A stretch of 64,000 nt of DNA from an archaeon (GTDB taxonomy: Archaea > Nanobdellota > Nanobdellia > Pacearchaeales > GW2011-AR1): positions 2,335 through 66,334 of the forward strand of contig JAUWIJ010000006.1 in NCBI GenBank assembly GCA_030605415.1, read 5' to 3'. The notes beneath the pieces were generated by a model. That model ran no database searches, was not told the DNA's origin, and saw nothing but the letters and a program-made list of their open reading frames with translations. Every line of letters begins with the position of its first letter. Position 1 is the stretch's first letter. The translations under genes were made by a program, and so were the position numbers. Positions 57,379-59,539 of this stretch are shown here, piece by piece.

Positions 57379-57458
57379 CCAGTAGGTATCTTTGGTGAGC
57401 TACCCAGTAGGTGATCTGGTGAGCTAAAGTTTTTACTCAGTAGGGGATGTGATTTAGG
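57379..57458 (+). repeat. Tandem ~24-nt repeat (2.5 copies) between smc start and rnhB end
   Basis: ccagtaggtatctttggtgagcta / cccagtaggtgatctggtgagcta / ctcagtaggggatgtgatttagg. Confidence 0.7.
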
Positions 57459-58122: not shown

Positions 58123-58173
58123 GTAATTATATATTAGTTAGATTTAAAAGTCTTGAGTATGATTTCTTTCCAT

Positions 58174-58355
58174 AGCGAGATGGAGCAGTCTGGTCAGCTC
58201 GTGAGGCCCATAACCTCGTTTCGGATTAGAAATCCTCACTAAGTGTTCATCCTTCACACTTAAAGGTCGTGTGGTTCAACCGTCGCTTCGGAGAAGCTCG
58301 GCCGAAATCTTACAGATTTCTAAAAGTCCATAAAGAACTTTTTATCACGCTCTAT
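58174..58355 (+). pseudogene. Degenerate tRNA-Met paralog carrying two intron-like insertions
   Basis: The first 44 nt are identical to tRNA-Met. A 45-nt insert follows the anticodon stem, and cassette B lies in the T loop (58280-58343). The 3' acceptor strand lacks cgc, so it cannot pair. Confidence 0.65.
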
Positions 58356-58401
58356 TTTTCAAAAGAAAGCTTTATAATGCGTTTTTATCATTTAATATTA
58401 T

Positions 58402-58477
58402 AGCGAGATGGAGCAGTCTGGTCAGCTCGTGAGGCCCATAACCTCAAGGTCGCGTGGTTCAAATCCCGCTCTCGCTA
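58402..58477 (+). tRNA. tRNA-Met (anticodon CAU), possibly initiator-like (A1:U72)
   Basis: Acceptor AGCGAGA/TCTCGCT, anticodon arm TGAGG-CCCATAA-CCTCA, T arm GCG(T)GG-TTCAAAT-CCCGC with one extra nucleotide. Confidence 0.85.
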
Positions 58478-58591
58478 TTTTGTTTTGAGCAGGATTTGAA
58501 ACTAAGCGACTCGCGTGGCGAAAACCTTTGCTCGAATTTTTTGTTATGTTGTTTTCTAAAACTATATAAGTTTTATTTTGTTTATATTTTT

Positions 58592-59259: not shown

Positions 59260-59539
59260 GATGCCTGCACTATTCACAATTCACACCTCGTAAAATTATC
59301 TTTTGAATTGTGTTTTACTCGGAGCAAATTGTTCAGCCAAACGCCCGTTTGTTCACTTACCGCCAACTTTTTATATTGTTATTTCTAATTGTTTTCATGT
59401 GGGGATGCCTACGTTATTCACAATTTGCATTTCGCAATCATATTAAAATTCGTTGGATTACTCAAAGCGAATTGCTCAGCCAAACGCCCGTTTGTTCACT
59501 CCGATAATTTTATAACCTTTATTCCTTGCATAATTTTAT
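59260..59539 (-). repeat. Two inverted cassette-A copies, each preceded by a tRNA-Leu 5' fragment
   Basis: gatgcc plus unit at 59266-59357, and atgtggggatgcc plus unit at 59410-59500. The units are the reverse complement of cassette A, and each contains ccaaacgccc resembling the tRNA-Leu D loop. Confidence 0.75.

Follow-up and report, generated by a model that had tools for sequence, protein, structure and literature searches.

In front of the intact tRNA-iMet(CAU) gene analysed here lies a second, broken copy of the same gene which is interrupted twice by hairpin-rich DNA. This raises the question whether the two inserts are introns, parts of a gene with another function, leftovers of an integration event, or small mobile units in their own right. 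Mobile DNA is well known for landing in tRNA genes, and interruptions are frequent in the tRNA genes of archaea. For Asgard archaea several routes of tRNA gene interruption have been tested in a 2026 preprint, and none of them proved to be general (10.64898/2026.10.13.758758). The window, meaning the whole stretch of 64,000 nucleotides that was analysed, corresponds to positions 2335-66334 of contig C1 in a genome of 0.89 Mb (35% G+C, 22 contigs), named G000 in the following. ABCE1 and tRNA introns are among the archaeal markers of this genome, and partial tRNA copies are abundant in it.

The tRNA-iMet locus and its relatives

The initial annotation, made from the letters of the window, had described an upstream copy that is identical to tRNA-Met(CAU) for 44 nt, a 45-nt insert at 58218-58262 and a 64-nt cassette B at 58280-58343 inside the T loop at about position 58/59, and it regarded this paralog as unable to fold as a tRNA. 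All of this agrees with our analysis (Table 1): the match to 58402-58445 is 44/44, both inserts have the borders given, TTCAA and ATC flank cassette B, and the acceptor strand is truncated, with CGCT missing. A functional intron-less copy was expected 50 nt downstream and is indeed found there, although the distance has to be corrected, as the working gene starts 47 nt past the paralog remnant. The locus thus contains a perfect 44-nt direct repeat (58174-58217 and 58402-58445) with the intact gene downstream and 184 bp between the repeats. Neither ARAGORN, which had been proposed as a check, nor Rfam reports the paralog as a tRNA, also not at a relaxed threshold (E up to 5), and the predicted RNA fold of the whole paralog (z = -1.8) is uninformative either way. 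The three hairpins of cassette B at this locus are HP1 (GCTTC/GAAGC), HP2 (GAAATCT/AGATTTC) and HP3 (AAAAGTCC/GAACTTTT). The cassette scores 104 bits with R1, a covariance model which was built on the three copies of G000.

Table 1. Features of the tRNA-iMet locus and of related sites in the window.
Feature	Position	Strand	Remarks
Inverted T-box hairpin GGATTTGAACC caac GATTCAA at the tRNA-Lys locus	25402..25423	+	Supplies the TTCAA site
Cassette B copy in the tRNA-Lys(UUU) trailer	25424..25487	+	R1 100.9 bits
Duplicate of the tRNA-Lys 3' end, atccccctgagtca, bounding the cassette	25488..25501	+	Compare 25385-25399 and the true 3' end 25277-25292
Paralog promoter region	58123..58173	+	TATA-like tttaaaa about 30 nt upstream; region common to divergent rnhB
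5' part of the tRNA-iMet paralog (tRNA positions 1 to about 42-44)	58174..58217	+	44/44 nt identical to 58402-58445
Insert 1, 45 nt, two hairpins, at the anticodon stem/variable loop junction	58218..58262	+	Single copy in the genome
Paralog tRNA positions 43-58 (variable loop, T-stem 5' strand, T-loop TTCAA)	58263..58279	+	One C>T compared to the working copy
Cassette B, 64 nt, three hairpins, after T-loop nucleotide 58	58280..58343	+	Between TTCAA and ATC
Paralog 3' remnant (tRNA 59-68, atcacgctct, then a) and T5 run	58344..58359	+	Acceptor-stem top CGCT missing
Spacer with working-gene promoter ctttataat	58360..58401	+	Compared with G401; homologous spacer in G413
Working tRNA-iMet(CAU), intron-less	58402..58477	+	Rfam RF00005, 57.7 bits; ARAGORN places the gene at 58401-58478
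Empty site in G000	59492..59493	.	G401 holds a 60-nt cassette-B variant here, in a pseudo-tRNA-Leu D-arm copy

A search with a 21-nt core of the cassette led to the genome record JBDRJI010000097 (G401, also handled as G429), which over 4 kb shares about 85% identity with G000 and shows rnhB, paralog and tRNA-iMet in the same arrangement. At four-fold degenerate sites the two genomes differ by 38-39% (rnhB 26/67, smc 105/274). Cassette B shows 4/64 differences between the Met-locus orthologs and 5/64 between those of the Lys locus, a divergence which is low in comparison to the four-fold sites (P about 1e-9 to 1e-16), and two of the five differences at the Lys locus form a compensatory pair in HP1. 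The promoter region of the paralog differs at 1/51 positions (50/51 nt are the same, while other intergenic DNA is 0-74% identical), and the spacer with the working-gene promoter at 3/47 (44/47 identical over 58355-58401). Insert 1 has diverged in G401, where its 3' hairpin is swapped for a different hairpin. The exon-like parts of the paralog share lineage-specific substitutions with the working gene, in G000 as well as in G401, and the 3' remnant changes in concert too: TCT pairs with A5-G6-A7 in G000, and CCCC with G4-G7 in G401.

A third species (G413) possesses an orthologous paralog with cassette B in the T loop and a homologous spacer, but no insert 1. Two compensatory pairs separate its HP2 from that of G000, and the promoter of its paralog is duplicated almost exactly. 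In G000, G401 and G413 the 3' truncation is found at almost the same point (68/69). G087 and G107, one of which belongs to the same genus, have a single tRNA-iMet each. As the single tRNA-iMet of G107 lies 55 nt from rnhB and the paralog of G000 lies 51 nt from rnhB, the paralog occupies the ancestral position.

Judged from these comparisons, the paralog is old and is kept similar to the working gene, and it is not simply decaying. The term "decaying", which had been applied to it before, does not suit a copy that is orthologous in at least three species, whose exon-like parts evolve in concert and whose cassette differs by 6% compared to about 38% at neutral sites. Insert 1 is a later arrival than cassette B, in the lineage of G000 and G401. 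The cassette copies group by locus and not by genome. Recent horizontal spread was considered as a cause of the cassette conservation and is unlikely because of this grouping, and because insert 1 and the 3' remnant within the paralog unit have diverged.

Two further observations concern the working gene. Its T stem has a bulged U in the 5' strand (GCG-U-GG / CCCGC; window 58450-58470), which is retained in four genomes (L008, L009 and L010 were compared), and the adjacent pairs covary from G-C to A-U. Directly 3' of the gene (58492-58545) an inverted T-box GATTTGAA is followed by a copy of the T-stem 5' strand (tcgcgtgg) and by a start resembling that of cassette A (cgaaaacctttgctcgaa), another cassette of this genome. 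This arrangement is missing in G401.

Distribution, sites and structure of cassette B

Besides the Met locus, G000 holds two further copies of cassette B. The first had already been noticed at 25424-25486 with about 75% identity by eye; the copy is genuine, while the figures change to 25424-25487 and 53/64 identical positions (83%). The Met- and Lys-locus cassettes share an identical 30-nt core, CTCGGCCGAAATCTTACAGATTTCTAAAAG, for which 100 shuffles of the window gave 0 matches. The inverted T-box hairpin in front of the Lys-locus copy also precedes cassette B after tRNA-Lys in G401 and on the metagenome contig L012. On contig C2 a third copy with the exact core occupies the T loop of a pseudo-tRNA-Arg(UCU) which precedes the real gene. 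This pseudo-tRNA of G000 also carries a 49-nt hairpin insert at position 9/10. Such a hairpin of about 49 nt (C2:6812-6860; C3:7584-7631), here called cassette D, represents a third insert family at tRNA position 9/10 which is common to the pseudo-tRNA-Arg(UCU) and a pseudo-tRNA-Lys(CUU) of G000 and whose closing stem covaries.

With R1 the family was identified in 13 of the 49 genomes of the genus, namely G000 and 12 others, and the number of copies ranges from 0 to 13 per genome. Three copies are found in G000, four in G401 if two variants are counted, and 1.5 on contig L012. Across the taxonomic family, R1 on 201 genomes and BLAST on 401 genomes returned only G000, which is due to the few members of the genus in that sample, and none of the approximately 390 other sampled genomes of the taxonomic family contains the cassette. 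Two hits were rejected: the one in G107 (L005) is a false positive situated in a coding region, and the one in a Blastocatellaceae bacterium (L011) has no tRNA nearby and is probably a chance match. Neither the cassette nor the paralog corresponds to an Rfam family at the gathering threshold or at E up to 5, where only the working tRNA matches, and the 21-nt core has no match in viral contigs. A description of such cassettes was not found in our literature search.

All 32 copies examined are located in tRNA-derived sequence, and the neighbouring tRNA genes belong to at least ten identities (Met, Lys, Arg, Gln, Leu, Asn, Ser, His, Glu and Gly). Twelve of them occupy the T-loop site TTCRA|AT in the sense of the tRNA-like host, eight the T-loop site ATTYG|AAC in antisense, and two the site CTGTT|AA in the anticodon loop of a pseudo-tRNA-Asn. 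Read in cassette orientation, the insertion point of 22/32 cassettes is therefore behind the fifth of seven loop nucleotides, and the loop is restored when the flanks are joined. The remaining ten do not follow this 5|2 rule and are found in D loops of Ser/Leu copies or at hybrid sites with the inverted T-box. The borders show no target duplication, and the 5' flanks vary (TTCAA, ATTTG, CTGTT, GCGTA). At the Met, Arg and Lys loci of G000, as for copies in the 12 other genomes, the cassette is held by a disrupted tRNA copy beside an intact gene. The initial annotation had offered a second loop-targeting element as an alternative, and the discrete, recurrent unit found here is in line with this suggestion. 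A generic repeat, which had been expected to turn up at many non-tRNA sites, is not what the 32 copies look like, since every one of them is tRNA-derived.

In an alignment of 25 distinct copies, which was fitted to the model and thereby favours structure, 18 of the 23 predicted pairs have compensatory changes. In the same model-fitted alignment 93% of the cells are paired compared to 75% in shuffles, and none of 500 shuffles reaches the observed values. G.T cells (14) and A.C cells (13) are equally frequent, which argues against a wobble bias of an RNA strand, because RNA made from one strand would not give this equality. Three unpaired motifs, CCKTCG, CTCGG and CTAA, are conserved in the family.

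Concerning gain and loss, a 60-nt variant upstream of tRNA-Leu(UAA) is the only clean cassette-level indel that was found. It is present in G401, where R1 recognises it, and absent in G000, and the pairwise alignment shows identical flanks without duplication. However, this could be a precise loss and not a gain. Among the copies compared there is no T-loop site which is both filled and empty. Whole units are polymorphic as well. In G405 a direct repeat of about 20-26 nt, which continues beyond the tRNA end, bounds a cassette unit after tRNA-Lys(CUU), and the corresponding site of G000 is empty. At tRNA-Lys(UUU) one unit is found in G401, a cassette A and a cassette B unit in series in G000, and 1.5 B units plus A on L012, with a copy of the tRNA 3' end closing each unit. 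The pseudo-tRNA-Cys of G000 lies 3 nt after tRNA-Arg, where G401 has its only tRNA-Cys, and the pseudo-Arg of G000 retains the anticodon stem of the G401 type. The comparison of these two genomes shows that a disrupted copy tends to remain at the original locus and in the original state. For the host copies, an origin according to the published integration model (PMC3293823) is in agreement with these data, but so is a tandem duplication which was followed by cassette insertion, as suggested by the duplicated promoter in G413.

Interpretation of the cassettes

Our preferred reading, which we hold with moderate confidence, is that cassette B represents a gene-less three-hairpin DNA module of one genus that occupies a fixed point in loop DNA derived from tRNA genes, on either strand and in disabled copies, the tRNA-iMet paralog being one of its hosts. 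An old tRNA-iMet duplicate with its promoter and a truncated 3' end would have stood at the ancestral site next to rnhB, would have gained cassette B in its T loop and would later, in the lineage of G000 and G401, have gained insert 1. The cassette might move as DNA, by means of a trans-acting recombinase or nuclease which recognises structure and acts on stem-loops extruded from single-stranded tRNA-gene DNA. Such a movement would resemble the recombination of folded hairpins at integron attC sites, and two Xer-like tyrosine recombinases are the sole candidates seen. Because insertion would destroy a single-copy tRNA gene, cassettes are seen only in disabled duplicates and fragments beside an intact gene. 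Gene conversion with the working gene would keep the exon-like parts of the paralog matched.

The precise indel, the patchy distribution and the occurrence in both orientations are points for mobility. The strong conservation in place, however, is unlike that of a purely selfish insert in decay and fits either a host function or a DNA palindrome-correction process. The few differences, the compensatory pairs in HP2 and the grouping by locus make purely selfish decay unlikely.

Regarding enzymes, the two Xer-like tyrosine recombinase paralogs of G000 (C7:35063-35542; C19:64482-64955) are both also present in G401, and an extra integrase-family gene occurs in G000 only (C17:39813-40949). The integrase-family genes of G000 are located on contigs other than that of the window, and the 184 bp between the 44-nt repeats are too short for an integrase gene. 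The Y1 HUH transposase profile PF01797 matches nothing in G000, and in G401 it gives a weak hit of 20 bits. A weak "integrase" hit near tRNA-Glu/tRNA-His was discarded, as it appears to be a topoisomerase-IB-like protein which is conserved in G000 and G401. No evidence ties any recombinase or integrase-family protein of G000 to the cassettes, and the link to the Xer-like recombinases is drawn by analogy.

Alternatively the paralog could be a working ncRNA gene, in which cassette B is expressed from a tRNA-type promoter within a scaffold resembling a tRNA (5' half, T stem and an acceptor of 3-4 bp), for example for the binding of a protein or a tRNA-processing factor. We consider this unlikely in view of the family as a whole, which is restricted to 13/49 genomes of one genus and lacking in the approximately 390 other sampled family genomes, varies between 0 and 13 copies, occurs in both orientations relative to the tRNA-like host and the adjacent gene, includes one variant that was precisely gained or lost, and has no excess of G.U over A.C cells. 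At the Met locus itself several features are what such a gene would show. Compared to neutral sites, the conservation of the cassette and of both promoters is far higher, a T5 run directly follows the remnant, and the unpaired motifs are kept family-wide. The predicted T stem of the paralog can pair in both species (GUGUG/CACGC in G000, GCGUG/CGUGU in G401), and the 3' remnant of G000 matches the changes in the 5' strand of the acceptor (A5-U68 and A7-U66, which are G-C in G401 and G413), so that a short acceptor helix would be kept. Concerted change of this kind can, however, also be produced by gene conversion.

A second alternative regards the locus as the scar of an integrase-mediated integration of the Campbell type. 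A larger element with a 5' segment of tRNA-iMet would have recombined within tRNA positions 1-44, so that the old 5' part stayed in front of a rebuilt gene, with cassette B as a leftover arm. The perfect 44-nt direct repeat indeed equals the SSV1 attachment site in size, an upstream 5' fragment together with a rebuilt gene matches the Caldiarchaeum model (PMC3293823), and the paralog is in the ancestral position. The pseudo-tRNA-Cys likewise lies at the ancestral spot, 3 nt after tRNA-Arg, and the pseudo-Arg has retained an anticodon stem of the ancestral type; G000 also has the one extra integrase-family protein. Nevertheless we judge this explanation to be quite unlikely. No coding DNA is found between the repeats, and the cassette borders lack the duplication of the T loop which a crossover in the loop would require. 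Random deletion remnants would also look different from cassettes with the same ends and length at different tRNAs and in both orientations, and the duplicated promoter of G413 resembles a tandem duplication.

A third possibility is that both inserts are non-canonical tRNA introns, with intron gain or loss ongoing in a tRNA which is or was recently spliced. The initial annotation had suggested intron gain or loss as one of two readings and had proposed to look for a bulge-helix-bulge (BHB) structure at both insert borders. In our scan (4-bp central helix, two 3-nt bulges, outer and inner helices; maximum score 16) 11 x 11 border combinations were evaluated for both inserts in five copies (from G000, from G401 and the Arg copy), together with positive controls and shuffles. 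Cassette B and insert 1 reach scores of 9-12, while the best score of shuffled sequence is on average about 10. For genuine introns of these genomes the scan gives 12-16, with the value of 16 for the 25-nt intron of tRNA-Lys(UUU) in G401. The best placements restore no T loop and differ between the five copies, and neither a BHB nor a relaxed BHB (hBH/HBh') that would restore a tRNA was found at the insert borders in any of them. Removal of the inserts leaves no complete foldable tRNA, as the 3' acceptor strand is truncated after 68/69 in G000, G401 and G413. Eight family members in antisense would remain unexplained by an origin from splicing. We therefore rejected the cassettes as BHB introns on account of the shuffle-level scores, the truncated acceptor strand and the antisense copies. 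Non-canonical introns of archaea are known from variable-region and T-loop positions (PMC4090602, PMC4033280), the splicing endonucleases of the DPANN type have a broad specificity (PMC3239211), and a separate 24-nt module occurs both at a canonical perfect-BHB intron site and in a T loop (see below), but with no tRNA-restoring BHB in any copy, an acceptor 3' strand gone since before the divergence of three species, antisense copies and an intact intron-less gene only 47 nt away, the intron reading is very improbable.

Known systems and the origin of tRNA introns

In the recombination of integron attC sites by IntI and of CTX phage by XerCD, the target is recognised as a DNA hairpin and not by its sequence, the target is not duplicated, and the units are small and gene-less. 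Cassette B differs from these systems as there is no integron-type integrase or platform and the target is a stem-loop of a tRNA gene; its mechanism is one we infer. MITEs and palindrome-associated derivatives of IS200/IS605 are likewise non-coding and rich in hairpins, do not duplicate their target and can be lost precisely. In comparison to them, a Y1 transposase is lacking in G000, the flanks of cassette B appear to contain no conserved target tetranucleotide, and the end hairpins are dissimilar. Cassette A of G000 and the tRNA-linked repeats of E. coli share with cassette B that the cassette lies within a truncated tRNA duplicate and the real gene is intact. Their sequence is unrelated, and cassette B is distinguished by its own motifs (CCKTCG, CTCGG, CTAA), its restriction to one genus and a loop-position rule that holds on both strands.

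The integration model of tRNA gene disruption (Sugahara et al. 2012, PMC3293823) and sites of the SSV1 type with a 44-bp tRNA repeat resemble the Met locus in the upstream 5' tRNA fragment, the inserted DNA, the intact gene downstream and the repeat of 44 nt. However, the DNA inserted at the Met locus comprises only 228 bp without any gene, and the recurrent unit is a hairpin cassette of 60-64 nt in a loop. Archaeal tRNA fragments derived from mobile elements (van der Gulik et al. 2023, PMC9897764) are, like the host copies described here, partial and non-canonical tRNA copies beside real genes which can mislead annotation. The fragments of G000 differ from them in being genome-wide and promoter-bearing and in holding a conserved structured cassette. 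Finally, BHB introns of the Thermoproteales type, for which intron transposition has been proposed (PMC4090602, PMC4033280), are also short structured inserts at precise positions of tRNA loops, with related sequences at the same position of different tRNA genes. Cassette B has no BHB, its hosts are copies without acceptor stem and not working genes, and antisense copies occur too; the sites are 58/59 in the T loop and 36/37, not 37/38, in the anticodon loop.

A separate module of 24 nt deserves description in this context. It is a dispersed motif (CCCAGTAGG, a hairpin with UGGU loop, TAA) with a covarying stem and about 11-18 copies per genome, mostly just downstream of promoters. In G401/G429 one member forms the perfect-BHB canonical intron of tRNA-Lys(UUU) (C17:1050-1151; L033, L147), which is not present in G000. 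This intron matches another module copy of G401 at 23/25 positions, and related introns are found in G428 and G423. A further member is located in the T loop (58/59) of the pseudo-tRNA-Lys(CUU) of G000 (C3:7691-7714), and at least one copy is included in what had been listed as 24-nt tandem repeats before smc (window 57379-57458). Here, then, is an actual tRNA intron whose sequence is a member of a dispersed repeat family. A homology of HP1 to this CCCWGTAGG module was considered and rejected as too weak, since only the GCTTC/GAAGC stem is shared and the stem varies within the module family.

Going further, cassette B, probably together with A and D, might represent a new class of mobile DNA which recognises the shape of stem-loops in tRNA genes, strand-symmetrically after nucleotide 5 of a 7-nt loop, and such traffic might be a source of archaeal tRNA introns. 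We put this forward as a doubtful proposal, supported in its last part by the 24-nt module, which occurs as perfect-BHB intron in tRNA-Lys(UUU) of G401 and as T-loop insert in the pseudo-tRNA-Lys(CUU) of G000. If hairpins do travel between tRNA loops in this way, it would bear directly on the question how archaeal tRNA introns arrive; if movement is directed by structure, a testable mechanism for tRNA gene disruption would be at hand. As a natural system the genus is compact, with dated copies by the dozen. One structured family is found at a defined point of T, anticodon and D loops on either strand, is tolerated only in disabled gene duplicates, and differs by single cassettes between sister genomes, while a separate small module has been found in both states, as true intron and within a T loop. 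For DPANN genomes there is also a practical side, because such paralogs and fragments confuse tRNA annotation.

Further observations concern other tRNA loci of these genomes. A canonical intron of 17 nt interrupts the tRNA-Arg(UCU) gene of G401, whereas that of G000 is intron-less (G401 C2:1284-1375; G000 C2:6562-6636), and the cassette-bearing pseudo-tRNA-Arg(UCU) of G000 is missing in G401. The tRNA-Thr(GGU) gene of G401 contains an intron and is preceded by a pseudo-copy with three inserts. Furthermore, five tRNA-like genes with long variable arms were found in G000 (C9:41226-41921, C10:2183-2266), to which ARAGORN assigns the anticodons GAU/GAA; truncated copies are adjacent to them, and their anticodon loops may be oversized.
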